Part shown: piece after piece, positions 20,046 to 64,000 of the stretch
Layout of the letters: each line of letters starts with the position of its first letter
Numbering within the stretch: the first letter of the stretch is position 1
Notes under the pieces: generated by a model
Databases searched by the model: none
What the model saw: the letters and a program-made list of their open reading frames with translations, nothing else
Told to the model about the DNA's origin: nothing
Source: Macrostomum lignano
Taxonomy: Eukaryota
Reading direction: 5' to 3'
Assembly (NCBI GenBank): GCA_002269645.1
Contig: NIVC01001391.1
Location: forward strand, 62,001 to 126,000
Length of the DNA: 64,000 nucleotides
Translations under genes and position numbers: made by a program

Positions 20046-20057
20046 ATAAAAAAATAT

Positions 20058-41203: not shown

Positions 41204-41945
41204 CACGAAAGACTACCAAGTGTGGCGACGGCTTTCCTTTCCAATTGCCAAAATATTGGCGCGGCGCTTTTTCTGCCAGCTGGCAGACTTTTTGGCAAAT
41301 TTTGGCAACAAGAGTAGTATTAGTATATTACACGCACCCCTCATTTTTACATGTAAAAATGAATACAGTCCCCACCCGTCCTAACCCGCTCAAGCGAGCC
41401 GCCTACAAATCGTACCCCTACTTATCTTATACTCGCACCTGAGTAGGCGGTAACCAATAGACTATTCACCAAGCACTTCAAATGCCGAAACCGTGTTAAA
41501 CGCACGATAAGGTATACGCTTTACTCGGTCTTAGGCAACACTACTCACGAGCGCGGCCTACGTCACTTCCAGTAATAGATATTGAATAGATTATAATAAC
41601 CACTTGCTCCGTAAATAAACCACTTGCATTCTAAACCAACTCTACGATCCATACTCCGTTCCTGCCGGACCATAAGTGCTACATTTCCGAGAAAAGACCT
41701 TGCCCCAAACGCTAGGGCGCACACAGCGAAATGTACACCCCCCGCCACATTAATCGATTAAAATCCGATTCTTATCAACCAGCTGCACACAACTTTTACC
41801 CCCCACCCCCACCCCTCCCCACGACTTGAGGGTTTGAACAGATACAAACTCCTAGACGCAAGCGCTAAAAACGGCGTCAAGTCGGATTCTCGAGTGAATA
41901 GTCTGGCAAGTTTATTAGTTCACCGAGTCTCGTATAACCATCTTA

Positions 41946-42350
41946 ATGGCGAACCAGCTACAAAAAATAGTGGCTGTGTTTATTAAACAGGCCCAAGCCG
42001 CCCAAAACAACGCGGAAACTACCCGACAACTTTCGGCAGTTGTCAGACAATTATCCAAGAATTCCCATTACTCCCAAGAAGAGCTCCGAAATCGTATAGC
42101 CGTCCAGGCATACAATAATACCCAAATGTTTACCGCAATCGGAGAAAGCGTCAACAAACTAATCAACCTAGCAAGTGCGCAACTGGTGGTCCTGAAGGTC
42201 GTTTTTCTAATTATTTCTCTGTTCCTGGTGCTCGCTTTGCTTCACCACTACTACAAACGCATCCGCTCTCCCGAGTCCCGCCGTCCGAATGTCTTCCGTA
42301 GCCAAGAGTACGAGCTATTCTCAAGCCACTCAGACTTAAGTAAATTCTAA
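41946..42350 (+). CDS. Hypothetical 134-aa membrane protein (helical/coiled-coil region, one TM helix, cytoplasmic tail)
   Basis: LVVLKVVFLIISLFLVLALL followed by HHYYKR; tail contains YELF. Confidence 0.55.
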   Translation: MANQLQKIVAVFIKQAQAAQNNAETTRQLSAVVRQLSKNSHYSQEELRNRIAVQAYNNTQMFTAIGESVNKLINLASAQLVVLKVVFLIISLFLVLALLHHYYKRIRSPESRRPNVFRSQEYELFSSHSDLSKF

Positions 42351-42364
42351 TCATTATCCAAAAC

Positions 42365-42544
42365 ATGGCCCCAACTACCGAAGCATCCCGCTCTTATTTG
42401 CAGAGTCAGCACCGAAACGCCTTCACCCGGAACGAACCCAAACCGCCGTGCTGCCCCAACATGGACCTCAACACCACGCTCGCCGTCCATGCCGACCTTT
42501 CCACTGTCGTCCACGGCCGTGTTAATCGACTGAATCCACCATGA
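42365..42544 (+). CDS. Hypothetical 59-aa protein
   Basis: ATG 15 bp after the previous stop; AATAAA about 20 bp downstream. Confidence 0.3.
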   Translation: MAPTTEASRSYLQSQHRNAFTRNEPKPPCCPNMDLNTTLAVHADLSTVVHGRVNRLNPP

Positions 42545-45500
42545 AGTGTACTCGCCAACCTGCTAATAAAAATTATTATGCTGTATTGTTAAACTTCTCG
42601 AAACGTCTACAATTTTAGTGTGACGTTGCTGGTTTAAAGTGGCCCCGCAAAAGGGCCGTTGGACTGCAGTTTCTCTACAATTTTTCATTTTAAATTCTCC
42701 AATAGTTTATTTTAACGTTTACTCGTAGTAGCGCCCAACGAATCTGTGTCAACTGCTAATTCACTGCGTACTTTGCAATCCTTGCGCGCGACCGTAGAAA
42801 ACTTGCACGATCGATAATTTCAAGTTCCCCCGCCAGCCAATGAAAACTCTCCGCGTGTATTATGTTAACCCTTCTGCGCTCTTTATTTAACCCCGCCTGG
42901 CGGCGGGCTGGGGGTTTTTTTTACTTCTGTCCTGGCGTTCCTTCGCTCCTGCGTTCCTTCGCGTCTGCCTTTGCTTCCCTTCGTGGCCTCTCGTTCTCCT
43001 TATCTCTCGCCACGGCTCCACTCGCCAGCCAGACTTGTTTACGCCTCTCCCGCCAAGTTTTACTCTACCACGGCTAGCGCCAGCTCTCCGCCGTTTCTGC
43101 CTACTCACGACCGCTACTCACTGCCATTGCCTCATCGCCATCCTTCATCGTCTACTCATCCTATCATTAACTCGTTGTTGCAGCCGCCAGTGCCCATATC
43201 GTTATTGCCTTTGTACTACTATTAATATTTTAAAGAGAAAAATATAAAGCCAAGACTTCAACGTTAATTAATCATCGGTCTATTACCAAGTGCTACCGCT
43301 ACACGAAACCGCTACACCGCCATTGTTCAATTCACCTTCCTTTTGGACTACAACGACAATTCTCGTCAAAACGGCCCTTTTAAGGGTTATAGCCACTACA
43401 ACTCAAATCGTGACATTAGGATCAGGATAGTATTTTTCATTTCTACGTAGTACAGATTAGAACCAAGGGACCGTCACTAGGCTTCAATATTTTACCCATA
43501 GAACTCAAAACTTCGATACCAACCACTCATATTCGTACTTATACTTTTTCGCATATTTTCTGTTACTTTTCATCCGTCTCCGCGGCATCTACACATATGC
43601 ATATCTTGCACTTTTGTTTACATTATCCGCCCTCTCGATTGAACGCCGGCTTTAGTAGCTACTTCAACCAACATTGAATCCGTGTATTTTAGCACTACAA
43701 GTTTTAATACATTCATTGACAAACCGGTATATTTTTGTATTAAAATTTTTTAACAAGTAAATAAAATAAATTTGAATAAAAGTTGAATTTAAAGAACTAA
43801 AGCAAATTACATGCGATTTAAAAAATATAGCCGCGTCAAGATTCCCGCGGGGTGATTCGACTCCCACCCCCCTTGCTCCTACCCCCCACTTAAGATAAAC
43901 CAGACCCCATAATACAGACCCCCCCGCACGCCAGAAGCCCTAGAACTAACCACACCACCGAAAACTCAGACCCCGAGTTTATCACCCCTCACTTTAGCCC
44001 TAAGACAAACAAGATCCAAACCTATCCTTTAACAACGCCATATTTCCACCGATGACACAACAAGACAGAGGCACCCCCGCTAGCAAGGCCTTACATCGAA
44101 CGAAGGCCTTGGAACTACGCCACACTGTATTTACATGTACGATACTGCACACAGAGCGAATCCAAAAGAATAATTATACACATATGTTCAAGCCTTCACT
44201 AAATAAAAGTCGCATACGAAAAATTTACAAATACAATTCCCCTACAGTCCACATAAACAAGCCGACGGCGGCGACGGAGTCAACCAACCCACACGCCGAG
44301 TCCCGAATGCCTACGACAGGTCCGCATCCTAAAACCAAGGAAGATGACATACATTTACCAGGTCAATTTATTACGCTGCAATCAATATAAAATTCACTAA
44401 CCCTACCACCACCAGGGAATCCCCTTCCGGATGGCGGCTTCGGAATCTAAAATTTGATTGTATAAATAACTCTTTGTTGTAACACAAACTCTACCACCAT
44501 AGACTTGCATATTTCACCCTAAACCACTACCAGCCTGTCCCCCAACCCGATATGACTGTGTACACCCTACAAAGAAGAGCATGTTCTTCTACGTAACACC
44601 AACCGTGGAAGGTTGTGGCGGTCCAGGAGTCCGCCCCCGTTCGAACACGAAATTTGTCTGCAATTTAAAAAAATAAGATTTCAACTGTTTTACACCCTCA
44701 AGTTTTAATCAATGCCATGCAGTCTTGAATGCGTGGCAGCATAAAGTAGAACTGGTTCATGCATTAACGGACCCGACTCACGCTAAATAACATGAACTCA
44801 ACTACCATAAAACCTCGTAACTCCATCTTAAACCGGCACGTGAAGAGCACCTCCCAAATCTAGCTACTTATGTACATCCCGCCAAAATAAAGAGCATGGT
44901 TTCCGATGTATCACTAACCGGGACACGTGGCTGCGGTGGTCCGGGAGCTCGCCCTTCTCCGATCGCGCAATTCGCCTGAAATGTCAAATAAGATTCCAGC
45001 CTTTATATCTTCAATGTTTAATCAATGCCAAGCGACTACTGACCATTGTAAGCTGTTTTGGGCTGGACGAAACACACGCAGCCTGAAATACGCAACAGCA
45101 GAAAATAGAACTGGGCTACAATATTGAACTGGGATCACATTCAATTAAAATACAATATCCATACCTCGTTTCGAGTCCCACGACCACGTCCGCGAATCTA
45201 CGATTCAAGAATAAAGAACAGACAAGTAAATTTATTTTCATACGGACGAGTGAATTATACCACACCAAAAAGCTCATCTCCACTCACCATGGCTAAAAAC
45301 TCCTAAAATGAGAATGGAAATTCTTTATTTATTAATGCAATATGTGATAAGAAAAGCATACGAATATTGTCTCGTACCTCCCTTCCCTGAGCCACTATCT
45401 CCGGCACCACTTCATGCATTCGCGCAAAAACTGTCGTCGCCCACTGGTGCTGCAAAAGTACTCGGTCACTCGTGCATAGTTGCTAAAAAAGGCAAAATGA

Positions 45501-47166
45501 ACTCGTCAAGTACAAGATCAGGCACTACTAACTAAAAAAACAATCTTACATCGTAACCCGCTTCACGATAGCGAACTTCGGGTCGCTCCTCACGTAGCTC
45601 CTCCAAAGCTGCCGTCCTTGCGTTGAAGTAATCCTACAGTAGATAAAGGTATAGTAAGTTATACTACCACAAAGCAATCGAACTCAGAATGCATATTACA
45701 TACCTCTGTCCGTGGTGGGAACGTATTCCTCCCTATAGTAATTTCCGCGTCATAGGGATCCTCGCGGCCCCGCACACTAGGCGGAACTACCGCGACCGGA
45801 CGGAGGTCTCGCCGACCGTCTACTGAAGTCGGTATATGATGCCCTGTCAAAATAAGGTGCAATACAAGAGGAGTGGCAGCCATAAAAACTATACTTTCCA
45901 GACGGTCTACTTAAGGGCGACACTCGTCGGAGTCGATCGCTACCGTAGTCCACGAAAGCGAATTTACCTTCCAACTCTTCAAAGTACCCCTCCTGCGCCT
46001 TCCAATACTCTTCCCGCGATCCGTCCTGAGCCTCGGCCATTGTCAATCGCAATCAATCGTTCGAACAGTTCCAAGTCTCCTCTCTAACTCAATGACCTAG
46101 ATATCCCATTCATATGAAACTCAATCCACGCGGGGATTGCACAATATCCGTTATTGGCATATAGCATATAGATAGCACCGCGCTGTCAACCAACCACTCA
46201 ATGCCGAAGCCAGTAAAACCCCCCTCCCCGGTATCTTTCTACAAACCGACCTCTATGGGAAAACGCCACCCGTGACCCAAACTAGGGTGCAGGCATTTCC
46301 AAATTTTTATCAATCCAGCAACGAGCACGCAATTTACGCCCATGAAATGCATGCAGTCAATTCACCGACCCCGGCCTACTATAACCGGTACTATTATAAA
46401 CCCGAACGCATCGAGTGAGGTCATTTTCCTATTCCACTAGTGAACACCAAATTAGTAAACTTAAATAGCATGTCAAATCAATTCACAGATTTGCACGCAC
46501 TACTATAATGCCAAAATTATCTCTTAACGCACGTATATATGCATCGCATCTCACCAACCCTAAACTCTTTAACAAAATGTCCAAAGTCCCTGGGAATTCA
46601 CCAGCCAGAAGACCAACTACAATCTTCAACGATCCCACGCCCCCTTAAAAAACAACTCTATAAAATAGGTACCCCTAAACGGAATAAAATCTTCATTAAG
46701 ACTCCAAATAGAAAACACTTCAAACACGCGTTCCGAGCAAGGCAAGATCAACACCATGGCTGGTTTCGCTGCCGAATCCGTATTCCAACCGGGTGCTATC
46801 CAAGCCGACGTTGGTAATCTCCACCTAGGCGAACCCAACGCTCCTACAGCAAGCTGCACCTTCCGTAGCGTAACGTGGACGCCCCCAAAGTCGACAGGAG
46901 ATCCCCACTAGTGATTCAAACCACGACCCCAGTCGAGATTCTTCGTGGTGTCCAAATACAGGATGCCGGAGAGTTTTTAACCGGAGACCGTGAGGCGGTG
47001 GCCATCGGACTGTCATCATCGGCCTTTTGCAGCAAATTCCTACAATCCATCAAGTAATTTGAAGAATTCGCCATCCTCGTTACATGTGCATACTCACTAG
47101 ACCATGAATTCTTACTGCTTTTCAATCCCCTGCTCTCGCTAGACAAGTCGAAAGAGGCATCGCTAT

Positions 47167-48718
47167 TATAACAGTTTTTATTCCTGTTATCTTCTGCTCA
47201 CAAGTCAGAAAGAATTTCGAACACACCTGGCCTCTGAGGGCCCTGTTATGAGTGTGAGGCTCACATCTCCGAATCTCTCTCTCTGTGCCGCAAATTATCC
47301 AAAACAGTGTATTTTATAGTCAAGCAAGCAAACTGGTTTAGTTGACAAAATGAAGAGCAATGCATAGTTTGAGCGGGGCAGGGTTATCGCTCGAGCATTT
47401 TTCTCTGTCCCGTTGTTAGGCAACCATATCACCCCCCCCAAAGCATTGCTGCGAGTCTACTGTGTCACGCGTTCGCAGGCTGCTGGCTTGGCCTTCGAAC
47501 CTCAGCTTTGTTATCTGCCCTTTAGTGTAGAGCTGGTCTGGCTGGATAGAACCGGTTGAGACGAGAGGAGGCCGTTGTTTTTTCGCTTCGATGTAAGCAC
47601 AATTTCAGTGCTTACATATCTTCCCCTTTTTGGAGACTGACACTCGTGTCAGTCTGACACGAAGGTGTTGCTTCTCGATGTGACTTCGTCCTTGTAATAA
47701 GCAGTTTCATACTTGAATTCGTCACTAGTTGTTGTGGCTGAGCTAGTTAGTCGGCTGATTGGTTGTGCGTCGTAGTGAAGTCGATTTGGGCTGGGTGTGT
47801 TTGTCGGAAGCTACAAACCAGCAAGTCCCTTCTGTTTGCAGTACAGTTTGTCTGTGTTTTTCATGGGGCTCTTTTCCCCCGAAGTAGTCGTCAGTAGTTA
47901 CTCAATTTTCAATTCGCGGATATCTTGAAATACTGTTACTGCAGAACTCCATCAGGCTTGCCTGGTTGCACGTCCAGTGTCGCAATCTGGCAGTGTTACT
48001 AATTGAGTTTAAATTCTCACTTGTTTAATTATCCGTTTTGTACGCCAAGTCGTAGGCCAAAATTCGAAGAAATGAAAGCCAGATGTTGTGTTTGATCCAA
48101 AGTTGTGCCTTGACCGACTTAAACACTACGTGCATAGAAGATGAATAGGTTTTGTACCGATATCTCTTGGATTTCCATTGAACGATTCGAGTAGAGCGGC
48201 GGCTGCACATTTGTAACGGCTTGATGCGTCACAGTCGCGTCTTAATGTCGTCAAGCATACCACGTCGATAATTGTCTCTTGGCTCTCTGGAGAATCTCGG
48301 TTAGTTGAGGACGAATTAGTTACGTTGGGCCTCCGATTTCCGATGATGTTGAAACACGTTGCAACTTGGTCTTCTTGCTTGCTTGATGTGATGACTCGTT
48401 GACTTCACACTGACCTTGATCGAGCACGTTCTTTCTGACCTGTGGCAGGATGATGTTGTCTAGCGATGGAGAAGGCTTGTTGCAATCACCCCTAGTCAAG
48501 TTGGCGGAACTAGGTGACTCACTCTCAGGGAACCAGATATAACAGTTTTTATTCCTGTTATCTTCTGCTCACAAGTCAGAAAGAACGTGCTCGATCAAGG
48601 TCAGTGTGAAGTCAACGAGTCATCACATCAAGCAAGCAAGAAGACCAAGTTGCAACGTGTTTCAACATCATCAGAAATCGGAGACCCAACGTAACTAATT
48701 CGTCCTCAACTAACCGAG
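47167..48718. other. Inserted segment with a 48-bp direct repeat (47167-47214 and 48538-48585) and a roughly 140-bp inverted duplication (about 48290-48436 vs about 48575-48718)
   Basis: TATAACAGTTTTTATTCCTG...TCAGAAAGAA occurs twice; GAGCACG/CGTGCTC mirrored arms with about 2 mismatches. Confidence 0.8.
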
Positions 48719-49511
48719 AGGAGGTGATTACTTGACCTCTTTTTACTTGATACGTACAAACAACACGGAATCACAGTATCACAGCGGGAGATAAAAACCC
48801 CACTAACACTCGCGTATTCACCAGCCACCTTACAGTGGCCCCAATTAAAAACAGCGCTCCTGCAGGCTAGGGACCCGTCTCAATGGCGGGAAGAAGCGAG
48901 ATAGGCATTTAGAAAGCCACTCCAAAGAAGGGCATAAATGGGGCGGTTGTCTGGTGGTTGAGCGGTTCATCGGATCCCGAGGACCAATCTAATTGCCACA
49001 TGACCACCTCAGAAAACCCCAAAAGCACCCGTCATTGTATGGTCTGGGCGTGATCCACGCTCGGACTACATAATGAAGGGGCGGTCAAGGCAACACAAAT
49101 AAAATTAGAGCACCATCGAAGGAGCTAGTAAAGTTTCAGAATGAGTAAGCCACAACACTAGTACAAAAATCCAACCAAATAATCCAAATTTAACAATTAA
49201 GCGGACAAATTCACGCTTCACCTTACAATTTATTTTTGATTATTCGTACACAGTAGTAGTAGTGCTATCAAAGATGGACAGAAACACGAGAAAGTAGCAC
49301 GCATATGGCTTGTAGCATAAAGTAACATTAGTTCGCACGCATGATTCTGCGCATAATAAATCATAGCTTAGACCTGTAGCATACGGCAGTTTTTAAAAAA
49401 GAAAAGTTAAATAGAACAAATACTAAAAATGCTTATATATCTCCACAATAAAAGATGTTTTCGTCATTCCTTTCGCATAATAGTTACTTAATTAACTGAC
49501 AGGTTCCCATA

Positions 49512-49751
49512 TTAAGCAGATAGGGGCCGATAGCGGTACCGGCAGCAAAACGCCACGATTAAAACGCAGACAATGAGCAGGAGAAAACCGCCTCCGCCCA
49601 CTCCACCCAGCACACCTCGGAGCGCTCGGAGCCCAGAATCCGTCGCTAGAGCTTGATGGGATAGCTCTCCCACGCGCTCCTCCAAGGCCGATAGGCGCCG
49701 ATCCATCTTCGAGAGTAAGCTAGACAATTGCTCCACAGCATGCTGCGACAT
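49512..49751 (-). CDS. Hypothetical 79-aa coiled-coil + TM protein
   Basis: LSSLLSKMDRRLSALEERVGEL heptads; FLLLIVCVLIVAF TM; CCRYRYR tail. Confidence 0.55.
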   Translation of the reverse strand: MSQHAVEQLSSLLSKMDRRLSALEERVGELSHQALATDSGLRALRGVLGGVGGGGFLLLIVCVLIVAFCCRYRYRPLSA

Positions 49752-50040
49752 AGTGCCAACGTCACTCCCGCAAAAGCGTAGACAGTATAAGCAGTCAAAT
49801 TCTATATCCAACACTTGCCAGCGCCGGGGACTCCCTCTCAATTAACACTTATACCAGCCACAGTGGAGGGAACCCCCCCTAATAAAAAATCGATCGGCCC
49901 ACAACCGCCACCCCCCCCCCCAAGAGGGAAAGGGCGATAAACAACAGCGGAGGCCCCTGAAATCCACTAGCGTACATCAAAATAGTTCAGGCTGTACATT
50001 GCCACACAGAATCTAACTTAGAAAAAATCATTCCAGCGCA

Positions 50041-50364
50041 ATGGCTGACCACGAGTTGCGCCCCTATTCAGCACACGATGCCTATCAGAGGCGACCAGGC
50101 ACCCGATTTAGGGATGTCAACATACACGGGCAGCCTTGTTACAAGGCAGACGCCCAAACGCAAGCGACGCCAGAAGACATTGACGGGGGACGCTCAGTGG
50201 CCGCCGGAACGTCGGACCCCGAAGGGGGAGTCATTAGACTCCCCAGAAAAGAATGGCCAGGGGGCAACTACGCCCCCACCCCTGACGATTCATGGCCGAC
50301 ACTGCAAACCCGACGCCTGTTTGTCTGGCGTAAACCCTACTGGGCGCCCCTGGATGAGGAATGA
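50041..50364 (+). CDS. Hypothetical 107-aa protein
   Basis: Clean ATG ORF; no recognised domain. Confidence 0.4.
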   Translation: MADHELRPYSAHDAYQRRPGTRFRDVNIHGQPCYKADAQTQATPEDIDGGRSVAAGTSDPEGGVIRLPRKEWPGGNYAPTPDDSWPTLQTRRLFVWRKPYWAPLDEE

Positions 50365-51729
50365 ATGAAGGCGACGCTGCAACAAATTAACTAACTGACA
50401 CACTTCACATAGTACATAGCAATATCAATCTAATACTCGTACATAGCACTATCAATCATTAATAATCAATTAATCACTTGGCTAATTTTAATTTCTAACC
50501 CTATATCGTTAATATTATTATGTGCATTTCATTTCAGACTCGGAAGACTAATCCTCGTTACACAAGGATTTCAAAAAAAGGGGGAATAATATAGGGATTA
50601 GAAATTATGAAAGTTGGGACAAATAAGAGTTCGCTAAAGGGCAAAGTAAGAAGCAAAAAACAGGGGGCGAAAGTTCAATTTAAAGATAAGACACCTAAGT
50701 GAGAGAAATTAAAGAACGGCAAGAAAGTGAAATAAGCTATAGATAAGAAACTAACTTTGACTTTCCCCCAAGATTTCAGACTAAAACCAGATGATATCAA
50801 ATCGGCCGAGGTACCAGGCAGAGCCAGTCGGCGCGGTGCCAGGAGAAGCAATACGACACAAAGCCCGACTGGCGGGCGAGATAAAGCAATGGTCAACAGG
50901 CCAAGGTCAGCGGTGACGAACGACCCCAGGGAATAAGAGGACGACTCACCGAGGGACGCACGAGGGGTCTGACGTGCGAATCGACTCGAACGATGAACCC
51001 TGAACTGACCTTTAACCATCGCCTGATGCGACCAATTAACCGATAGCAGATTATCTCTCTCGCCCCGTAGCAACGCGCTAATCTAATGTTGCTGCGTCTG
51101 TTTTGGACACCCCGCCGTGGCTAATCAGCGGCGGGGATGACGTGTATCAAATAATCTATATAATAGACACGGCCTCGGCCCCCGAAATGGGCAACGGAGA
51201 AAAGAGTCAGAGTTAAGTCTGGAAGTCATATGCACTTCACAAAACCCTTGAGTTTACTTAATCTTCATCATTTGTGCCGTAGGCGCGAGTAATAAGCAGC
51301 CTAGTAGCGATCTCTTGTTGTAAGCTCTCTTAGGCTTCGAAGACGCAAAAGTAATCCAACAAGACCGCTAGACGACTACGAGAGAGAAGCATAACCGAGG
51401 CCCGAGAGAAAAGTCTTACAGCTATCAAACTAAAGCAAATAGGCGATCCGATGCCGCTGCTTCGCATCTCCCGCGCCACCGAGGAAGGCGACCTGGGCTT
51501 TGCCTAGTGTGTTGCCATAAAACCTACACTACCATGTTTCACCTTTCGAGCACTGCCTAATCAACACCCGCGTAAAGTTGACACAAGCGAGCTGAGGGGA
51601 CTTAGCGGTCTTTACCACCTATCCGTTCAGCTCACAAGTCTTTATCGTCAGAAGGAAAGCAAGACATGGCGCCTCGGCCTCGCCCTTCGCTCGCTGACAC
51701 TGGTCGACGACGACCCGAAACACCTGCCG

Positions 51730-52098
51730 ATGCTAGCCCAAGCTTTGCGGTTTCACATCCCAACTACGTCGACTCTAATCGCCGCCACCACCGCAACTGA
51801 GGAAGAAGAGTCAACAACTACGACGACGCTAGTGAAACCAGTTAGCGGACGAAAACGACGACAAGGCCCAACTCGTCGCAGCCCCGCCAAACGCCCCACC
51901 AAGACGACTGGAGCAGCAGCAGCAGCAGCTGAGGACTGGATCACGGCGACTCCCGTCAAAGATCTTGTAAGCGGTGTTACCAATACTGTCCCCAAAGCGG
52001 GTAAAGCTGTAGCCTCCAACCCAGCGCTAGGGGACGTGGACTCGGGGGCCTCGACGGAGCCCATGGACAGCGAAGATGATGAAGTCTTCGCACAGTGA
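51730..52098 (+). CDS. Hypothetical low-complexity protein with a basic NLS-like stretch
   Basis: GRKRRQGPTRRSPAKRP, T/A runs, acidic end; AATAAA just downstream. Confidence 0.35.
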   Translation: MLAQALRFHIPTTSTLIAATTATEEEESTTTTTLVKPVSGRKRRQGPTRRSPAKRPTKTTGAAAAAAEDWITATPVKDLVSGVTNTVPKAGKAVASNPALGDVDSGASTEPMDSEDDEVFAQ

Positions 52099-52324
52099 GG
52101 GTCTACAATAAAGCTTTTTCTTTGAAGTCTAGGTTTTTCATGGTAGTATCATAGGCTTCATAGCAGAACTAAGGCAACTGGCAAACCGTTAGCGTTCACT
52201 TGGTGGCGGGAAGCTATACCTATAACTCTAACTACCATTCTCCGTAAACGGAAACGCATCACCAAGAAATATATAAAAATCTTAACTGTTATACTGAATT
52301 TTTTCTCGTATTTATTCTTTTCAG

Positions 52325-52905: not shown

Positions 52906-53672
52906 ATGACGAGCCAGTCTCGCATTTTTCTCCTGGAGGGCGTAATCGGTGCCGGGAAGTCGACGTTGCTTCGAGAACTGGCTCTCACCTCCCGCCTCGA
53001 GGGTTGGGCCGACAAAGCCGTCTTCGGTCCCGAGCCTGTTCACCAGTACGCGCGACACCCGCTCCTCCCGGACTCGGTAAATCTGCTTCAGTCATTCTAT
53101 CGAGGCGAGCTTCCGGCCGTCGCATTCCAACAGCACGTCTCCCACGACTTGCTCGACAGACAGCAAAGTAAGTGGTACTATAGTAGCTAGAAATTCCTTT
53201 TGTATAGCTCCTACTACATGTACAACCAATGTCGAAAGACAACACGGTATAGCTACTTTTGCCAACCTTGTGTTACCACCCAGGTCCGGAATGAGGTTAA
53301 CCAACAACCCTCGGGTCGGCTCGAGCGTTCCAAGACGTACTACACCGTCAAGGCTCGCTGTCTGACGCCGAATGGGTGATTGCTCAGCGCCAACTAGCCG
53401 TCCTCGAAGCGACTGAGGTACCCTTTACCGGCGCGAACATGACTCTTATTTACCTGCGCATTGACCCGGAGTTGGCCATTCAACGCATCGCCCAGCGCGG
53501 ACGCAGCGGTGAGGAGACTGGCATCTCCCTGGACTATCTACGATCGCTAGACGAGGCGTTTACACGCCACTACCAGGACTACTCGAACGTACACGAAATT
53601 CTAATCAGATCGGATACATCTACGACCGATCTAGCCCATCTTGTTGGCGGCATCATTCGTCGTGAGCTCTGA
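52906..53672 (+). pseudogene. Deoxynucleoside kinase (dNK/dCK family), split into N-half (52906-53167) and C-half (about 53301-53672)
   Basis: LEGVIGAGKST P-loop, EPV, NLLQSFY, AFQ, SARAF...GSLSDAEW, LIYLRIDPE...RIAQRGRSGEE...DYLRSL; GTAAGT at 53168. Confidence 0.85.
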
Positions 53673-56600
53673 CATGCACTTGATATTAACAACAACGATT
53701 TTCTGCTGTAGTAATAAACACCTAAATTCAATCGAGCCCCTACCAAGTTGAAAAAACACCACCTACCACTACTACCCCCTGGTACCTGAAGTAAAATTCC
53801 CATGCGTACCCAACTATTTTTTGTTTATCATGATGATCCATTCGAACTGCTGCAGACCCCTAAAAACACAACCATTGACTAAGTTATACGATCCTATTCT
53901 TTCAACCACCATCGACGACCTACTACTTACCAGCCTTCTGTTCATTCCCAAATATTCAAATTGTCTACATAATTGTATCTCTGCAAAGTAAAATACAGTT
54001 TAACCACGCGGCGGAGGACATTTTCGGACTGTTCCACCAAACTTGAGGCTGTGCATTCCTTCCTTATTTTTGCCACCGAGCAAACTATTTAGGCGATTAT
54101 CACAACCACCCCATCGCCAACAATTGCTAACAACATTCCAGCCGCCGTCGACGACGAAACAAATCAGATGCCCCGTGTGCCGGCAGAGATTCAACAGTCA
54201 AGCCGCCCTCCATGGGCACTCGCACAATGACTCGTGCTATCAACCAGACCAACTTTTACTTCGAGAACCAGTGCGTCGGCTAATCGAAGAGGACACTCCA
54301 CCAGGCTGGTCGGTACAACATACCGAGTCCGCACACCGAGGTCGGGCGAATTTTCTGACGTTCACGCCACTGCTGGACGAGGACGATGGCGAGACCGAAC
54401 CACCCAGCGAGTTACTTCCACAACTGCAAGTCCCACTTTTCCGTCTTTTTCACTCTCTCGGATCTGCGGACTGTTTACTCCGTACATGTATACATCCTAA
54501 TGTAAAAATGTATCGTACTCGTTATCCCCCCGCCAATGACACTGCTGCTGGTGAATCCCCCCACAACGAAGAGGTAGAAGTAATCGCGCCCTTCTTCAAT
54601 TCCAAAGTCGTTATGGTCTCCTTTGATGCGAATGCTCCAGCCGCCGGCCACCGTGTACTTCTTCTCTCTGAGGACGTTTTCAACCAATGGTACAGCGAGG
54701 CAACAAACGATCTGGTAGCTAAATTAGACAACTTTCAGTCCCGAGGTAGCAACTGGAAGTTCCTCACCGTTGTCAAGGTCGACGTTATGCTGTGCATATT
54801 TTGCCGAAAATATCTACTACTACAGTCGAGCAGCAGCAGTCGTCGGCAGCAGCAGCAGGACGTGTGGGGAGCGGGTTGCGGGGCGGCGGTGGTGTTGGCG
54901 GCGGGCGTGGCGGCGGCGGCGGCGGCGGGCGCGCAGGCGGGCGGCGGTCCAACAGAATCCGCACCGATCCGTTCCGTTCCATTCCGCGTTCCACTGGCTG
55001 TTGGTCGTATGCCGGGAGCGGTTTTGTTTCTACGCCCGCACCGAGCAGATAAGTATGATTGTTTTATGTATGCTGTCGTGTCAAGCGTCTTTTCCTCACA
55101 GGTCGAAGGGCAAGCCCGTAAAAGGCGAAAGGCGTCTTACAGGCCTTGGCTGAAAAGCTTTCGATTTACGCGCGCCGGAGTGACTCGTCACTCAATTGGG
55201 AGCTACAGAAAGTTTTGCCGGCTGAACCCTCGAATTAGACTGATGCGTGTGTTTGTCTGGAGCCATGCCACGAATACTGCCGTGCTGTTTTTTAATTTCC
55301 GTCGTTCCACTGGTGACCTTGCGCCAGTCAATTGTCTGTTCATACCACCTTACGCAGAATTCAAGTATGGACACTACATGGCGGTGCTAAATCTGGATAG
55401 GCTGTTGAGTTCTCGTGCTAAACGCCGGCGCTATTGTCCTGAATGTCTGGCGAGCTTTATTCACACCACGTCTTGGGATTATATCTTGAAAGAACGTGTG
55501 TGGCCAGACGACGGAGGAGCAACCAGGCGGCGGTGGCGGCGGCTTCATTCGAACGCCAAAGCCAGTCACGGAGGAGGTTTTACCAGAGGAGGGCAAGGCA
55601 CTTTTGTCTTTTTCAGCCTACGAGACTCGACTGCCGCCGCTGTATTTGGTTTATGCTGATATTGAGAGTCTACTTGTACCTGTTGAAAAGGCATCGGCGG
55701 GCCTCGTCAAGGGCCTGCCAGCGCCTACGGCTAACAGCCGTGTTTTACAAATTCACGTGCCCGTTTGTGTGGCCTTTCGTTTGGTTGTCGATCCGGATTT
55801 GGATAGTGTAACGAGGGAGGATTTGTTGCGCAGATACAATACTCCATGCAAGTTGTTTTATTCTACGCCTGGTACAACATATTGTATTTGCAGGTTTCTC
55901 TTGGCTCTGCGCGAGCTTGCATTCGAAGTAACTAATGCGACTAGCAAGATGACTTATAGACCAATGCTTAGAAAGTATCTAGGTCAGCGTCCTAGCGCAG
56001 ATCGATGCTACGTCTGTCGTCGCGAGTCTCAAGTCTGGGATCATTGTCATTTGAGTGGTCTTCCACGTGGAATGGCCTGCATGTCGTGCAATCGAAAACT
56101 TGCCCTGCAGCGCTATCGAATTATCGTCTACCTGCACAATCTTCGAGGATATGACGGTAAAATAATTGTTCGTGAGGTGTACAATGTGTTTAGTGGAGAA
56201 GACGACGTTCAACTGCACGTTCTGCCCGAGTCGAGGGAACGGTTTAAGACGTTTTCATTAAAGTTCAAGGTACCGCTGGCTGGCAGTCAACGGCCGCAGC
56301 AACAAAAGCAGAAGAAGAATTTTGTTTGGCTTGAAATCTGCTTCAAGGACACGTTTGCGTACTTGTCGACAAGTCTAGCTAGTCTGGCTAACCGTTTGAC
56401 GCAGGAACAGTTGGTACACTGTCGGGATTTGCTGAATGTTTATCCTAAACTCCAACTGTCTACTCTGCAGCAGAAGGGAGTGTTTCCGTATTGTTACTTG
56501 GACTCTGAAGAGAAGTTGGACAGTGTGACTGAACTGCCATCGCGAGATTTGTTTTACGACGCAATGACCCGGTAAGAGTGTTCTAAGGAGGAGTACACAC

Positions 56601-58038
56601 GCGCTCAGCAGAGTTGGCAAGAGTTTGATTGTGCCAATTTGCGTGACTATCTGACTGTGTATTTGCTGTTGGATGTACTACTGTTATGCGACGTATTTGA
56701 GAGTTTTCGTCGGACTGCAATTCGAGAATACGGTTTGGATGTGTGTCATTTTCTCGGATCGCCAATGTATAGTCTGGCTGCGTGTCTGTTGAAGGTGAAG
56801 AAGCCGATCGAGTTGTTTACAGACGCTCGTATGTACTCCGAGGTTGAAGCTTCGATTCGAGGTGGGTTCAGTTTCGGCACTCGTCATCTTACTACGGCAA
56901 ATAACCCATTGGTAGAAGAATGCCGTCGGCAGCTGGATGACGACGACGACGATTTAAGATAACTACGGCGGAATGCACCGTATGGCACTCACTTGGCCTA
57001 CCTTGATGCTAATTCTCTTTAAGCCAGTGGTATGGTGCAGGCACTACCGTATAAGGCCTATCGTTGGTTGCCCCGTGAAGTGATTGAAAATCTATCAGTT
57101 GATGATGAGGCAGCTGAGTTGGAAAATCCGAACAAGTCGAGCAAGTTTTTGGCTTGGTTGTCTAGCTATTGCTAGAATGGACGAGGGGCGTTATTAAATG
57201 TCGATCTTTACTATCCAAAGTTTTTGCACGACTCAACTGCCGATCTACCTCTGGTTATTGGCCATGAAAGAATTGATAGTGCCTATTTAACCGAGCATAT
57301 GAAGCAGGATTGGGTTTGTCTGCAACGCCAGCTTGATCCCAGGAAGAGGAATGCGGAGGTATACGAGGACGTAAAGCGATTCACTTCTCCGACAAGGAAA
57401 CTAATTGGTTCTGTTACTCATAACACAGGGTACATAGTACATCATCGAGCATCGCGTCTTTACCTCGAGTTAGGCATGCGCGTGACGCGTGTTAATCGTG
57501 TTCTCGAATTCGTAGAAGGTCCTATCCTACAGGAATACATTGAACATAATATTCTTCGGCGGTCTGAGGCGACTAGCGATTTTGATCGAGATTTCTTTAA
57601 ACTATTGAACAATGCTGTGTACGGCAAGTTTCTGCAGCGAGTTCGAGACCGACTCAGCTATCGCATGTGTACTACTGCCGAGAAGTTGGAAACGTATGTC
57701 GCTAAAGAGGAATTTATGGACGTGATTCTGTATACAGAACGTCTAGCGGGCATGAGTTTGACTCCTCGTCGAGTATTGCTAAACAAGCCAATTCTGATTG
57801 GTAGCGCTATTCTGGACCTCGCGAAAACATTTGTCTACGAGTTTTTCTATTCAAGGATTCAATTCCATCGGTCGCTTGCTTCTGCCCGCGTGCTTGGTGG
57901 AGATACGGATAGTTTGATCCTGGCATTGGTTATGGCCGACCCGGAGACGAGTCCTCAGGAGACATTGTTTAAAGACTAGGTGGAGTGCGGTTTGTTCGAT
58001 ACTAGTAATTATCCACCTTCTAATCCGCTTTATACAAC

Positions 58039-61000
58039 AACGAGGCCAACTCCTCCGATGGAGGAGAAAGGGGAAGAAAGTAGGTATTCGTCGATCTCGT
58101 CGATCTTGCGTCGCTTTGCGGAAGTCGCAGCAACAGCAGCAGCAGTCCCAATCGACGTGGACGGACCGGCGATCGCCAGTGGTCCTTCAGTGGCCGAATC
58201 AGCGCTGGCATTCGCAGCAGCCGCCGACTCCTTGCGGATCTGGTATGCTGCCATGTCGCTACCCTTGGTGATGTACTTCACCACGTACTTGATGGCCCGA
58301 ACTGTCGCGCAGATCTCGACATTCAGGTGACAGCGAAACTCGCGCAGCAGCGCTGGGCAGTACGGCACCACCCAGCGGTTGTCAAAGGTGAACATCACCC
58401 TTTGACCGCCGCGCAGCTTTGCGAGCTTCGTCACCGTGAAGCCGCCCATCTCGACGGATCTGCGGCAGTAATGCGGGTAGCCATCCTCCTCTACCTTTGT
58501 GGCGGCCAGGAACTCCTTGGGTAGCGCTTGCTGCACCTGCCTTTCTCCATGCTCGCCGCGGCAGAGTTGAGCTGCTGTCCACAGGGACCGTGCAACATGT
58601 TCTCCGCCACCAGCTGATGCAGGTCGGCGTCGGCGACAGGGTCCGGGATCTCCGCGCTGATGACGGCGTCGTACTGATCCGGCTTCAGCTTGTTCGCCAG
58701 CCACAGCAGCGCGTGCACGTGGGGAAGACCTGGATGTGGATAAAATTTAATTTTATTGAAATAAACGAAATTATGGAGGCAATAGATAATGCTATAGTTT
58801 AAAGCTTAAAAGCACACTTGCCTCGCTTCTGGTACTCCAGCGAGCAGACTCGAGCCAGAGTATCTCCAAACAGACTCTTCAGCCTGTTTAGGAAGGCCTT
58901 CTTTTTCAGCTCGAACACCCGGGCGGTGATGTCCGGCCGATCGACGGCAGTCTGCCCTGGAAGCAGCTCGGCCAGAATTTCCGGCCACTTCGGGTTGCAT
59001 GTCATCGTCAGAAACAGGTCTGGGCGGCCAAAGGCGTGAAGGTCCGTCAGGATTCCGACCTCACTGCACTCGGGCAAGTTGAAGCGTCGGACATGCTCCC
59101 CAGATGGGCGGGCATCGGGGTTGATGACGACCTTGGCTCTCTGCAGCTGCGAGTCGCTGCGCAGCAAGTCGACTGCGGACTTCAGGCTGCGCACGTAGCT
59201 GTTGCAGTCATGCAGAACAGCTTGCAGCTCCTGCAGCAGAATTTCGTTGAGACCAGCCGTCCATTGCAGTCTGTTCTGCAGCTCTTGGTCCACAAAGAAG
59301 ACCTGGCAGAACCTGGCCGCATCCCCCGGGTCCGGCAACAGGCTGCCGATCCGATGGTGCATCTGACCATGGAGGATGAAGCTCGGGTTCCACCCGGGCT
59401 GCTCACGCTGCCTGGAACCAAGCGAGGTCATATGGAGCGCGCCGTTGTACTTCCTGATGTCTTTCAGGAACTGTGAGCTGAACGGATGCTCGCCAGTCAG
59501 CAGCCTCTTCAGAACATCAGGCGGGTCTCGGCGCTGCTCCAGGACGGTCTGTCAGTGAAAAAAAATACTCAAGTAGCTTTTTGTGGAGACTGGCTGCAGC
59601 AAATCATGCAATTGTTTATGAATCCATTGGCGGGTCTAAGGTTTTATACAATATTCATTTTATACAGTCACCGGTATAACAAAGCATCAATAAGGCAGCA
59701 ATTTGAGTAAACCAAAATAAAAATGTTAACTCACCTTTCCAGCATGACAGCAAATGCTAGCTGGCTCGTCCTTCCAGCGTAGCGCCCTGCAGTGAGGACA
59801 TTGGCGGTCCATGCGACCGAGAACATGTGGCTGGTGCGCCAGCTCCAGCAGTCTGTGACAGTGAAAAAAGAGAATTTTAATCATAAATCATACATGGATA
59901 ATAAAATCTAGTCGTACATTCATAAAGTTTATTGGTGGTTTCAGCGAATGAGAAGCTGCACATAATATTAGTAGAATAAAATATAAGAACCCTTACCTGT
60001 CTCGGCGCCACTCTGCTTGTGTCTGTACACGACGTTCGCGGTCGTCAGCGGACTCAGCCGCGCGATGCTGATTATGGCGCTGCCGCTGCGCCTCCAGCCG
60101 ATGCAGTTGGACCGCCTCATCCTCGGCTTTACGACTTTCGGCAGCACGCAGCCGGTCTTGGTCGAGCCGATGCTGGCGTTCCACCTCGTCTTCAGCATCG
60201 CGGCTGTTGGCTGTGCGCATACGACTCGCCTCAAGACGACACTGGCGCTGCACTTCGTCCTCAGAATCATGACTTTCGGCAGCACGCAGCGGGTCGTGGT
60301 CAAGCCGATGCTGGCGTCATTAAAAGACTCGCGGCCTTTGGCTGTGCGCTGCCTCTGCGCCTCCAGGCGATGCAGATGGACTGGCTCGTCCTCGGCGAAA
60401 CGGCTTTCGGCAGTCCGCAGCCGGTCCTGTTCGAGCCGATGCTGACGCTGCACTTCACCTTCAGCCTCACGGCTCTCGGCCCTACGCTGCCGCTCCCGCT
60501 CAGCGCGCGCTGCACGCTCCTCGGGTGTCTCCGACGCCCTGCGCCTTTTGGCTTCCGATGCAGCACGGGTAGAGCGGGAAAGGCATCCTCGACCTCGCTT
60601 AGGCATTTTGATTGTTCAATAATATAATAATTAATAAATAATGCAAATAGAAATAAGCAAAGAGCACTGTTCGACCAAATCGGAAGGTTTGAGAAAAATT
60701 TATTATGATATGGAATGAAATACGCTTGTAGAACTGAATTGAAAAGTCGAGTCATTAAGTAAAGGCCAAGTGTACTTGCTTTTTGTCAATAAAAAATAAA
60801 TATGATAATGTGCATTTGGTAAGACATGTACATGCAGCTGATGAGCAAAAGTGATAAAAGATATCGATTATTTTAAGCTAAAAAAATTAGAGCAGTCAGT
60901 CTTACAACTGCAAGGGACTGACTGACTAAAGGCACCGATAATAAAACAAATTGGTGGCGTAATCGATTTCTTAGTAGGTCAGTATCAGTTAAAGTTTTTG

Positions 61001-61100
61001 AAGTTAACAGTATGGCTACGCAATCTGAACCTTCCAATATACAGCCACCCACTCCCCGCCAATACACAGCAACCCCCCTCCAATGCACAGCGGCAATTGA
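58039..61100 (-). mobile_element. Internally deleted Helitron (Rep retained, helicase absent) inserted in pPolB
   Basis: RepHel motifs; 3' hairpin CTCCTCC-gat-GGAGGAG (58050-58066) ending CTCGT on the minus strand; candidate 5' TC at about 61100. Confidence 0.85.
58085..60606 (-). pseudogene. Helitron RepHel N-terminal/HUH Rep coding exons (60606-59997, 59852-59735, 59548-58822, 58729-about 58085)
   Basis: ETPEERAAR charged repeats; LGRMDRQCPHC...CCHAGK; PDLFLTMTCNPKW (motif 1); EYQKRG|LPHVHALLW (motif 2); KYVVKYITKGSD (motif 3). Frameshifts at about 60315 and about 58520. Confidence 0.88.
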
Positions 61101-61679
61101 ACCCCCTTGGACTTTGACGCCCTAACTAACTTGCTAAAAAATTAGTATTAAAAAACTGAGAATGAGAATTTAATGAGAATTAAAACTATAGAATCGTTGT
61201 TTTATACTGAGCTTAACAACTTATATTCACGAACTCAGCATTGAAAGATCTTTCCAGTAATATGTCTCTTTTGAACAGATAGCGTTTTAAAAAGCCCGAT
61301 TTCAAGCATTGAACTCTTGGGTGTACGTTCACTGCCTGGTAAAAAGAGGCAGTAATAAAAAGGCGCCTATAGTTAATAAAAAACTGAACAGTAGCCATAT
61401 CATTGCGCAATTGTCTATAAAGTCAGTCAGTGAGCCAGGGTTCAAGTGTACACACGCAGCCACTGAGAACGCGACCTACTACTGGAGAGAAAATACACTG
61501 CCAAGATAGAAAAATTTTATGGCGCAATCACTAAAATTGATGCAAATTTTCAGCTCCAAGCAGAAAGAGGGGACAATTAAGATTATCAAAGGTCAAGACC
61601 GCCGTTTTCTGCATTTTTAGGGATCTTAAAAATTGAAAATGAAAGATTAAAATAGCCTAAAGCCATCCTCGGAAAATTT

Positions 61680-63105
61680 TCAGTTTTCCCATATAAGTTT
61701 CAACGCTGAGTTGCAAGTATTCTGGGAGGAGTTATGCAACAAACGGACAAACAGACAAACAGACAAACATCGCACCAACTTTAGTATTTAGAGAAGAAGA
61801 TATTCTGGGAGGAGTTATGCAACAAACGGACAAACAGACAAACAGACAAACATCGCACCAACTTTAGTATTTAGAGAAGATTAAGATAGCATCCAAGCTA
61901 CAATAAGTTGAAGTTTAGTCTATGGCCATAGACATATTGAGCTCTCACTGCGAGAAAAAGACACTAATTAGATAGGGAAAATACAGTTTTTCGAATATTT
62001 AATCCCCTTAGCAATGAGCTAGAGCTCATTAAAATAGCTATAAACCCAATCCGGAAAATTTGCAGTTTTCCCATATAAGTTTCAACGCTGACTTGCCAGT
62101 AGTCTAGGAGAAAAATTGCAACACGCAGACAATCATCGCACCAGTTTTAGTATTAAGACGAGGCCAACTCCTCCTTCGGAGAAGAAAGGGGAAGAACTCC
62201 CATCACCGGAATTCCATTCCCTGAACTCCATCAGCCTAATCCCATTTTCCAACAGCTCTCCGCGCAATAGAAATCGTCTCCGTGAAACTGAACACCATCG
62301 AAATCGTCTCCGTGAAACTGAACACCATCGAAATCGTCTCCGTGAAACTGAACACCATCGAAATCCTCTCCGCAAAATAGAAATCCTCTCCGTGAAACTG
62401 GACTCAATCGAAATTCCTCCGTCAAACAGAACTCAGCTCTCAGAATTCATTGGTTAGGGTTAGGGTTAGAGCTACACACAGCTGCATGTTGAAGGGGACC
62501 GGTAAAAAAAGCATTTTTTCTCATTCAGTCAATATCATGGTCTCAGTTAGAGTTACCAAAAAGATTGCGCAATCTAATTCAACCCTCCAATACACAGCGA
62601 CCGATCCCCTTCCAGTACGCAGTGGCAATTAAAAGTTGAACTGATATCTTTCCCTTATGCAGAAAAGCATGCTTTCGAATCCTCATATTTTGAATTTCGA
62701 ATTATTTATAGCTCGTAGCAAAAGCTCAAGAAGTTGAAGCTTAGTCTATGGCCATAGACATATTATTATTTCTCAAGTGCTCACTGCGAGAAATATTTAT
62801 TTATTTTTAGCTCATAGCATCCAAGCCACAATAAGTTGAAGTTTAGTCTATGGCCATAGACATATTGAGCTCTCACTGCGAGAAAAATACACTAATTAGA
62901 TAGGGAAAGTACAGTTTTTTGAATATTTAATCCCCTTAGCAATGAGGTAGAGCTCATTAAAATAGCCTAAAGCCTGCTCCGGAAAATTTGCAGTTTTCCC
63001 ATATAAGTTTCGACGCTGACTTGCCAGAATTGTAGGAGTTTACTTGCAACATACAGACAGACAGACAGACAAACATCGCAGCACTTTTAGTATAAGGAAA
63101 GAAGA
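61680..63105. mobile_element. Cluster of non-autonomous Helentron/DINE-1-like (HINE-like) elements
   Basis: Direct repeats at about 61889-62153 and about 62816-63093; (GACA/CAAA)n microsatellites; shared CATCGCA...TTTAGTAT ends; a second copy of the Helitron 3' end at about 62158-62197. Confidence 0.6.
62270..62400. repeat. 30-bp tandem repeat (AATCGTCTCCGTGAAACTGAACACCATCGA)n
   Basis: About 4 visible copies. Confidence 0.9.
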
Positions 63106-63754
63106 AGTATAAAGGGAAGTTAATGGCCTGGAGAGATGAAGTTTCCGGTTGTACACCGTTGGAGTTTGCATTTCTACGTCCGAAAAACTATTCAATGGTG
63201 TATGCAAAGAAAAGCCTCTGTCAGGCTCTTGTGCGTTGCAAGGGCGTGTCGAAGTCGATTGTAAGAGGTATGAAGCACAATGTATTTTTGAGTGTGTTGA
63301 AGGATCGAGTTTTGGAGCATGTAACGATGCGGACGATTACCTCGCGACGACAGAAGATTTATCTTCTTGAGCAGCGCAAGCAGGCGCTTAGCTTTTTCGA
63401 CACGAATGGCTCGATGTAATGCTCGAATGGCCTGGCTCGATCCCTACTCATCCCTCCCATTTGGTCATTGGCGGTTGACTTGACTTGTTCTCCCTGTCTC
63501 TATTTTCTGTCTGTTTATGCTTTTTCTGCTCACAATATATGTGCGCAATTATCGAATGTATATGCAAGAATCCGCCTTTCCTTCTTTCTTTTTGTATTTT
63601 TTTTCGTTTTTCTAGACCAATGATAGCAGTGCAGGGGATTAGTACTAGGCTTAGTTTTTTGGATTGGGACGAGGATTACGAGGGTAGTACTAGACTTATT
63701 TTAGAGGATGACAAACCTCCTAAGCATAAGAGGAACTATGATCCGGCAGCCACG

Positions 63755-64000
63755 ATGAGCCCCGACGCTTGCACGACGGTCCCGCTGCGCGTAGTGCTCA
63801 CGGATGCCGGGGCAGTGATGCCTCGGCGAGCTACGGCCGGGTCGGTGGGCTACGCCTAGCCACGTGCGAAGACCGCACTGTGGAGGCCTTTGACACGGCC
63901 ATCATTCGCACCGGCCTCCGGGTGATGCTGCCGCCAGGCACCTATGGTCGGATAGCGAGCCAGTCCAGTTGGGCCAACCGAAACCTCAATGTGCAGGGCG
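63755..64000 (+). pseudogene. dUTPase (3' partial; 1-bp frameshift near 63855)
   Basis: MPRRATAGSVGY(D)LATCED...IIRTGLRVMLPPGTYGRIASQSSWA...VQG, matching dUTPase motifs 1 (AGYDL-like) and 2. Confidence 0.85.

Follow-up and report, generated by a model that had tools for sequence, protein, structure and literature searches.

A Polinton lineage of Macrostomum lignano with a TBP-like gene and a likely late-gene switch of its own

The closest described relatives of the element reported here are the Polintons and adintoviruses (Polintoviricetes). As far as the available parts of two descriptions go (PMC8502044, PMC8097293), they share with it a size of ~20 kb, (AGT)2 termini, target-site duplications (TSDs) of 6 bp, a PF03175-type protein-primed PolB (pPolB), an rve integrase with a chromodomain, a packaging ATPase, PLA2-like and pX-like genes and, likely, capsids and a protease. 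Alpha adintoviruses (Starrett et al.) have a PF03175-type PolB with an N-terminal OTU domain, and PLA2X. Vertebrate Mavericks are reported to be intronless (available text of PMC8097293), dUTPase and SSDBP labels already appear in adintovirus maps (the accessible portion of one supplement), and TBP, in the excerpts examined, is named solely in the legends of figures on MELD viruses not from animals. It is an open question whether Polintons are true viruses that go through a productive cycle, and their gene regulation is essentially undescribed in the literature searched. Searches of that literature, which excluded subscription papers, Repbase and bioRxiv supplements, turned up no TBP-bearing animal Polinton, no TATAAG in Polintons and no spliced-leader (SL) Polinton genes, and a term look-up in recent papers found no passage on TBP or TATA.

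A possible functional parallel is late transcription in beta- and gamma-herpesviruses, where a viral TBP-like protein, needed for late genes, reads the variant TATA sequence TATT before structural genes and host Pol II is used (available parts of PMC4893493 and PMC4922670). Here, we describe an element in a 64,000-nucleotide stretch of M. lignano DNA (the window). With somewhat better than even confidence, we read it as the decayed, insertion-inflated left part of a ~20-kb Polinton of the adintovirus type, whose TBP-like protein likely switches virion genes via TATAAGC. Unlike described Polintons and adintoviruses, this lineage adds a conserved cassette of SSB-like, TBP-like, deoxynucleoside kinase (dNK) and dUTPase genes, has introns and SL trans-splicing, keeps every gene on a single strand and places TATAAGC before virion genes.

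Ends, insertions and class of the element

The region belongs to a single Polinton/Maverick insertion that starts at 41,313 and ends 1,878 bp beyond the window, spanning 24.6 kb (Table 1). Its right end, on the same contig, is a remnant of the terminal inverted repeat (TIR) followed by AACAAG. Ten further element ends pair, across contigs, into perfect 6-bp TSDs (5/5), and 6-bp TSDs flank two of the three related families in which both flanks are readable. The initial annotation had proposed a larger undescribed endogenous DNA virus, gene-dense over more than 22 kb, with no TIR recognized in this part and reaching well past the window. The element does continue, as extension of the contig to the right confirmed, but only as far as the TIR remnant and matching TSD, and a 64-bp TIR lies immediately before the point at which that annotation began. 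The gene density does not hold either: three later insertions, absent from other copies, make up 10.1 of the 24.6 kb (10,115 bp of the 22,688 between 41,313 and 64,000), and the apparent large size is due to them.

Table 1. Features of the element in window coordinates
Feature	Position	Strand	Remarks
Target-site duplication AACAAG, 6 bp	41307..41312	.	repeated after right end, window-equivalent 65,879-65,884
Left TIR, 64 bp	41313..41376	+	begins AGTAGT
Small ORF, C-terminal hydrophobic (TM-like) stretch	41946..42350	+	seen in this family alone
Solo-LTR-like insertion, 797 bp	42619..43415	.	TG...CA ends; foreign to element
Canonical TATA box TATAAA	46659..46664	+	upstream of SSB-like gene; candidate early promoter
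SSB-like exon 1, predicted T7 gp2.5/NCLDV-type OB fold	46756..47053	+	intron in contigs X1, X2
SSB-like exon 2	47143..52098	+	interrupted by 4.25-kb insertion; phase-0 splice donor inside exon, at 51,967
LTR-like composite insertion, 4,254 bp	47167..51420	-	5-bp duplication; foreign to element
TBP-like domain, two-repeat saddle	52325..52895	+	without own ATG; begins at phase-0 splice acceptor
dNK	52906..53672	+	intron (~53,168-53,283); broken here
pPolB main part	54142..58040	+	stops and frameshifts in window copy
Insertion, 5,064 bp, Helitron fragment and repeats	58041..63104	-	foreign to element
pPolB C-terminus	63105..63480	+	downstream of 5,064-bp insertion
dUTPase	63755..64000, on to window-equivalent 64,231	+	broken in window copy

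The window copy is also decayed. It lacks ~5.9 kb including the integrase, capsids and protease, and is therefore dead. Its pPolB, earlier taken as full-length, contains frameshifts, carries five in-frame stops in the main segment and is split by a 5-kb insertion, in which a Helitron fragment lies (Helitron_like_N match at 58,799-59,551). Of two small TM proteins noted before, the ORF at 41,946-42,350 is the element's own and matches no Pfam family, while that at 49,512-49,841 sits in the LTR-like insertion; the two show no likeness (E 0.25).

Copies of the window-element family are 99% identical, marking it as young, and its young copies measure 20.3 kb; with related families of 14.9-18.9 kb, they match the Polinton size class of ~15-25 kb. 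Young copies and related families alike have AGTAGT-type TIRs, an rve integrase, an A32-like ATPase and a virion module. The 64-bp TIRs starting with AGTAGT agree with the (AG)n or (AGT)n termini of the Polinton/Maverick definition, as given in the available part of PMC8097293. In young copies the integrase matches PF00665 (E 5e-7) and carries a chromodomain, consistent with the rve type; the pPolB of young copy C362 matches PF03175 (E 6.8e-21), identifying it as protein-primed; and the packaging ATPase is assigned to the A32/FtsK-like type by a Walker A motif and a weak Pox_A32 score (E 0.024). The alpha adintovirus traits PF03175 PolB and PLA2-like are present, with the pX-like motif on a separate ORF.

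On weaker evidence, young copies probably carry the capsids and protease that the initial annotation had proposed to look for alongside integrase and ATPase. The MCP, penton and protease candidates have no Pfam match. The putative MCP is a conserved 440-aa ORF (65-75% identity across families) that reached a profile E of 0.0014, at 18% probability, against Pfam-DJR-positive capsids, and in another comparison did not rise above shuffles. The protease candidate has ASFV S273R as its sole match, a weak one (E 0.056), and is ~30% identical to an ORF at a like place in another Polinton family.

A large DNA virus of the NCLDV kind would exceed 50 kb, use an RNA-primed PolB and have many core genes; this element spans 24.6 kb, insertions included, and has a PolB of the protein-primed type. 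Two points speak for a larger virus: the accessory genes are genuine and keep their synteny, and the pPolB clade is distant from the other matches listed (see below). Against these stand the located ends and TSD, the 10.1 kb of insertions and the 20.3-kb young copies with a Polinton gene set, so that we have dropped this identity as highly improbable. The case illustrates that a Polinton swollen by nested insertions can be mistaken for a large virus.

A replication cassette and its transcripts

In six divergent families the genes follow one another as SSB-like, TBP-like, dNK (which one family has lost), pPolB and dUTPase, the five further families standing at ~30-75% amino acid identity. The genes cited by the initial annotation do belong together: their order is syntenic in other copies, hence they are not unrelated insertions. 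TBP-like, dNK, pPolB and dUTPase also all lie on the + strand, as it had stated, each with a Pfam match in the window (PF00352, E 7e-5; PF01712, E 1e-12; PF03175 and Endonuclease_7, in pieces; PF00692, E 2e-5). Judged from sequence, these four and a predicted SSB would form the replication cassette of the lineage.

The main part of the pPolB comprises a C2H2 finger, an N-terminal extension, an Endonuclease_7-like region and the exonuclease/polymerase, and in some families the gene starts at a splice acceptor without an ATG. The pPolBs of TBP-bearing families, ~35% identical at best to the other matches listed, form one long-branch clade in a quick tree of 47 of the 120 listed matches plus five local sequences, which held no named reference and was flagged for long branches and compositional bias; within that scope, the phylogeny suggested earlier sets them together. 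Related loci were absent from the viral contigs, metagenome contigs and phages searched, an NCBIfam search gave nothing useful, and a dNK homolog search at E ≤ 1e-10 returned only dNK itself.

The SSB-like protein is predicted to be an OB-fold SSB of the T7 gp2.5/NCLDV type (ASFV CP312R, Enc34 SSB, DUF2738/DUF5871), to which its top fold and Atlas families point. The model is of low confidence (pLDDT 54, best Z 6.7), with NCLDV-type OB-fold SSBs as its top fold matches; it differs from these proteins in its ~10% identity, its intron and an optional TBP extension. The fold of the TBP-like domain was upheld (AF2 pLDDT 89.8; Foldseek versus TBP E 4e-10, TM 0.7), at only ~20% identity to cellular TBP. 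Y57, F132 and F152 are invariant and a fourth aromatic position is replaced; we take these four positions to correspond to the DNA-intercalating residues of TBP. A search with the domain alone gave no homolog at E ≤ 1e-3 in a set of 170 candidates, 103-331 aa long, and a profile search returned four close relatives without context and 146 distant matches, TBP where named. In the Atlas, the clusters nearest to the TBP-like and SSB-like proteins mostly bear viral labels, with Nucleocytoviricota the most frequent. A single conserved TBP-dNK fusion gene was considered and rejected: only the window-element family has both in a shared frame, the other five having different frames or a deleted dNK.

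Transcript evidence comes from contigs of four sequencing runs, the RNA-type ones being presumed to be RNA. In contigs X2 and X6 (two studies) an in-frame splice joins the SSB-like gene to the TBP domain (depth 5-10, short side 30 letters), a junction absent from those listed for the DNA-like run X15. It is phase 0 on both sides, and its GTRAG donor and YAG acceptor are kept in all six families. One dUTPase mRNA contig, from one run and aligned to a younger copy, begins with 21 extra 5′ letters that match the published M. lignano SL at its 3′ end, with the acceptor just upstream of dUTPase; the same transcript carries poly(A). The RNA-type contigs showed no SL for pPolB or TBP, and a loose contig end that falls right on the pPolB acceptor turned out to match a host sequence by chance. 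Spliceosomal introns, SL and poly(A) indicate transcripts made by host nuclear Pol II.

TATAAGC and the proposed late-gene switch

Across the six families, TATAAGC occurs at 31 coding-strand sites versus 4.8 expected, and at two antisense. The virion half (43 kb) holds 29 sites, mostly immediately upstream of genes, and the remaining 61 kb two. In 6/6 families the motif stands 43-54 nt ahead of the penton ATG, and it lies upstream of pX (6/6), MCP (5/5) and the small ORF preceding the integrase (5/5). It is absent before PLA2X in two of six families, where TATATGC stands, and before the ATPase in five of six; it precedes dUTPase in two families, and the TATAAGG ahead of the protease falls on Tyr-Lys codons in the MCP. 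Six Polintons without a TBP gene, which belong to two other lineages in this genome, contain 0, 0, 1, 1, 5 and 5 sites on both strands (C3178 and C1655 were excluded from this count, as they run up to contig ends). None of them has TATAAGC at the 43-54-nt-type position before penton or capsid; one has a site 155 nt before the penton, inside an ORF. The association of TBP-like gene and TATAAGC appears as a correlation, one clade of related families being compared with two control lineages.

These observations suggest an early/late switch, for which we propose a tentative scheme. Host Pol II would use the ordinary TATA box to start an early transcript, and splicing in cis and trans-splicing with the SL would resolve it into SSB, SSB-TBP, dNK, pPolB and dUTPase mRNAs. 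The pPolB would copy linear DNA by protein-primed strand displacement, with SSB coating the displaced strand and dNK and dUTPase supplying and cleaning the dNTP pool. Through the SSB-TBP fusion, a TBP with changed specificity would reach replicating templates and recruit Pol II at TATAAGC, so that the penton, core, capsid and integrase-side genes would be expressed late and in a way coupled to replication. The integrase would then insert new copies. In a bolder version, which we hold to be less likely than not, alternative splicing would make the SSB-TBP fusion, which would read TATAAGC as a dedicated late promoter and couple capsid expression to replication in one protein, and the host SL would supply a start codon for pPolB where its acceptor lacks an ATG.

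Possible too, if somewhat doubtful, is an ordinary Polinton whose TATAAGC motifs are core promoters for host TBP, the TBP-like protein serving elsewhere, for instance in bending the DNA of the replication origin or as a decoy that binds partners of host TBP. TATAAGC is one base off TATAAA and at a TATA-like distance, so host TBP may read TATAAG; the joining of the TBP domain to a predicted SSB points to replication, and the domain has diverged from cellular TBP, with one presumed intercalating residue gone. Yet the SSB-like gene has an ordinary TATAAA or TATATAA box upstream in 6/6 families whereas virion genes have TATAAGC, TATAAA itself is not enriched (25 sense versus 26 expected), and Polintons of this host that have no TBP do not show the pattern. 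The baculovirus late motif is TAAG, and TATAAG might likewise be a late initiator that a large DNA virus, infecting alongside, would read with its machinery, in a virophage-like dependence with which the mostly viral Atlas clusters and the NCLDV fold matches of the SSB-like protein would agree. We hold this to be unlikely, since the introns, SL and poly(A) indicate host nuclear transcripts and an element with its own TBP needs a helper less.

The best reading is likely a Polinton with its own late-gene switch, by analogy with the herpesvirus TBP-like/TATT system. The group is unrelated, the TBP is a recognizable two-repeat protein spliced to a predicted SSB, and no other vPIC subunits were seen in the lineage. 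The initial annotation's "more autonomous" relative of Polintons may hold in this other sense, as a likely self-encoded late-transcription switch, and not as a larger virus. The family is young and transcribed and lives in a laboratory flatworm, which makes promoter and binding tests feasible. If the reading is true, an own TBP and a virion-confined motif would be sequence evidence for an early/late program, independent of herpesviruses, in a 20-kb element.

A normal-sized Polinton interrupted by insertions

Pfam matches for pieces of the TBP-like, dNK, pPolB and dUTPase genes, all on the + strand, bear out the four genes recognized in the initial annotation. The gene-dense stretch of more than 22 kb described there has to be revised. 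The element begins at 41,313 in the window, which covers positions 62,001–126,000 of contig C1391, and insertions make up 10,115 of the 22,688 bp between its start and the end of the window: three stretches (797, 4,254 and 5,064 bp) are missing from the younger copies on contigs C297 and C362, to which the window copy is about 96% identical. The second, an LTR-like repeat occurring at many loci, contains one of two small TM ORFs formerly assigned to the element; the other does belong to the element. The third contains a Helitron fragment and interrupts pPolB, which had been described as full-length and whose main segment carries five stops. The element continues past the window, as anticipated, but by just 1,878 bp, to a TIR remnant. 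AACAAG follows this remnant and also precedes the left TIR, a 6-bp repeat that forms part of an integration footprint. The insertion spans 24,566 bp, with 14,451 bp derived from the element, and about 5.9 kb of the right half is missing from this copy.

The younger copies are 98.8–99.6% identical to C362, and the one on C297 is 20.3 kb long with 64-bp TIRs (AGTAGT). Their ten ends form five perfect 6-bp TSD pairs, with the partners of each pair on two contigs, which we read as mis-joined scaffolds or recombination among near-identical copies. From left to right, the genes are a TM ORF, SSB-like, TBP-like, dNK, pPolB, dUTPase, basic/PLA2-like, ATPase, a likely penton, a pX-like gene, an unassigned gene, a small ORF, an rve integrase with chromodomain, a basic ORF, a likely MCP and a likely protease, the penton, MCP and protease being weak calls. 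At five single-base places in C362 genes with broken frames, all four sequencing runs compared disagree with the assembly, so assembly errors probably account for some of the frame breaks in young copies. TIR, TSD, pPolB, integrase, ATPase and size are all those of a Polinton, and the element is almost certainly one of normal size.

Neighbouring features and related repeats are collected in the table. The capsid gene of the TBP-less family with PF21738 is present in at least 98 near-identical genomic copies, and complete copies of that family measure about 16–18 kb. The LTR-like insertion is a retroelement that may, judging from the sequence context of its 2.2-kb unit at two other loci, carry Polinton DNA.

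Coordinates of features near and within the studied element, and of related loci
Location	Strand	Feature
Window, about 900–4,020		Host exons with TM end, presumably resembling peptide-amidating lyase
Window, 5,900–6,754	-	C-type-lectin-like ORF
Window, 12,840–15,308	-	ORF of a non-LTR retrotransposon, 822 aa; endonuclease and reverse transcriptase recognised by eye
Window, 17,778–27,403 and 31,867–36,379		Pieces of an unrelated high-copy Polinton family without TBP (capsid PF21738, penton, pPolB)
Window, 27,555–31,684	-	Gypsy-like LTR retrotransposon with ORFs for gag and pol, inserted at end of a pPolB ORF
Window, 40,099–41,203	- / +	Integrase (-) and PLA2-like (+) of PF21738-capsid family, directly left of studied element
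Window, 47,167–51,420		LTR-like insertion; 2.2-kb unit includes small TM ORF
G000:C272:351,295–361,928; C2421		2.2-kb unit flanking pPolB fragment of studied Polinton
G000:C1668:27,366–42,966		Copy with inverted duplicate of right 1.6 kb in place of left 6.1 kb; TSD partner on C356

A TBP-bearing clade in the genome

Genome searches with dNK and TBP gave 30 and 75 matches and brought up further families. Of five that were compared, four have TIRs at both ends (14.9, 18.3, 18.8 and 18.9 kb) and the fifth is truncated by a contig end; all five share the same gene order. The 14.9-kb family is a deletion derivative that retains TBP but no longer has dNK or the greater part of pPolB; it is likely a non-autonomous family keeping SSB, TBP and the whole virion module, and has 24 equal-scoring TBP matches (on C424, C593 and others). 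In a quick, midpoint-rooted tree of 52 pPolB rows, built without named reference groups, those of the clade group together at one end of a long branch (SH-aLRT 100), and their best outside matches are 32–36% identical. Four proteins from other samples, seen as proteins without genomic context, are close to the TBP-like family. Three divergent TBPs on short contigs (P0126, P0127 and P0130) have a K(L/V)Y..(K/R)P segment in common with the clade, and together they possibly form a wider viral TBP family.

Splicing of the replication genes

Four of 24 listed runs were compared over 10 kb of C362. Three of these, each from a different study, are guessed to be RNA, and the fourth is DNA-like. GT-AG joints occur in the RNA-type runs only and are absent from the listing for the DNA-like run. 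These remove a 90-nt intron from the SSB-like gene and a 117-nt intron from dNK (runs X1 and X2), and splice a donor in the SSB tail to a TBP acceptor in frame (X2 and X6) or to a dNK acceptor (X6). All 6/6 families retain the SSB–TBP donor and acceptor in phase 0, although conservation of the tail flanking the donor is poor. Vertebrate Mavericks are reported to be intronless (PMC8097293).

One X2 contig over dUTPase ends in poly(A) and carries, at an AG acceptor, 21 extra letters matching the 3′ end of the published M. lignano spliced leader (SL; PMC8629364). The pPolB of four families lacks an ATG and starts at a phase-0 acceptor, at the position of Met in the other two families; because its last letters are ATG, the SL could supply this start. 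No SL–pPolB junction was seen in the runs compared on C362. The genome has 58 matches to the SL 3′ end, with arrays on C1214, C3830 and C4853; six viewed matches (L142–L147) are not followed by a GT donor, so that they resemble repeats or retrocopies bearing the SL more than genes for SL RNA.

A TBP-like domain and the TATAAGC motif

The TBP-like domain is predicted to form a complete saddle (pLDDT 89.8) that matches cellular TBP at E 4e-10, TM 0.7 and about 19% identity. Comparison with a solved TBP shows that three of the four DNA-intercalating aromatic positions are invariant, the fourth being replaced. In the Atlas, the clusters closest to the domain are those of TBPs, most of them carrying a viral label. 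The SSB-like gene, translated through its intron with X in the sequence, gave a weak model (pLDDT 54), whose best fold matches are ASFV CP312R (Z 6.7, rmsd 5.1, 170 aligned), Enc34 SSB, T7 gp2.5 and many NCLDV proteins; Atlas returned DUF5871/DUF2738 at low share. This modelling suggests a likely OB-fold SSB.

The six elements together have 31 TATAAGC sites on the coding strand and two antisense, versus 4.8 in dinucleotide shuffles; TATAAA is not enriched in them. The virion half holds 29 sites, located before penton (6/6, 43–54 nt to the ATG), pX (6/6), the small ORF preceding integrase (5/5 elements having it), MCP (5/5, 124–159 nt), PLA2X (4/6) and ATPase (1/6). Upstream of the SSB-like gene there is an ordinary TATA box, not TATAAGC. 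Host flanks contain about one site per strand per 20 kb. The small ORF preceding integrase contains Cys and spans 57–99 aa.

Six complete Polintons from two other lineages, with no TBP-profile match at E<0.1, contain 0, 0, 1, 1, 5 and 5 sites on both strands, counted per element; in the two with five, three sites fall inside the capsid gene in antisense orientation, and another control site is 155 nt ahead of a penton, within an ORF. The main rival reading, which we regard as plausible but less likely, is that TATAAGC is read by host TBP, with the viral domain functioning in replication or as a decoy.

In the accessible text of Starrett et al. (PMC8502044), TBP appears only in figure legends for non-animal MELD viruses, and adintovirus maps already show dUTPase and SSDBP labels, so dUTPase and SSB genes alone are not new. 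For the combination of genes, motif and splicing, no report was found in the open literature searched. The TATT-binding protein of beta/gamma-herpesviruses (PMC4893493) may be a functional parallel to viral TBP and TATAAGC.

On balance, we lean towards a late switch in which viral TBP reads TATAAGC. Early transcription would start at the ordinary TATA box, and protein-primed replication would be aided by SSB, dNK and dUTPase; viral TBP would then drive late transcription of the virion genes at TATAAGC, with the SSB fusion tying it to replicating DNA.
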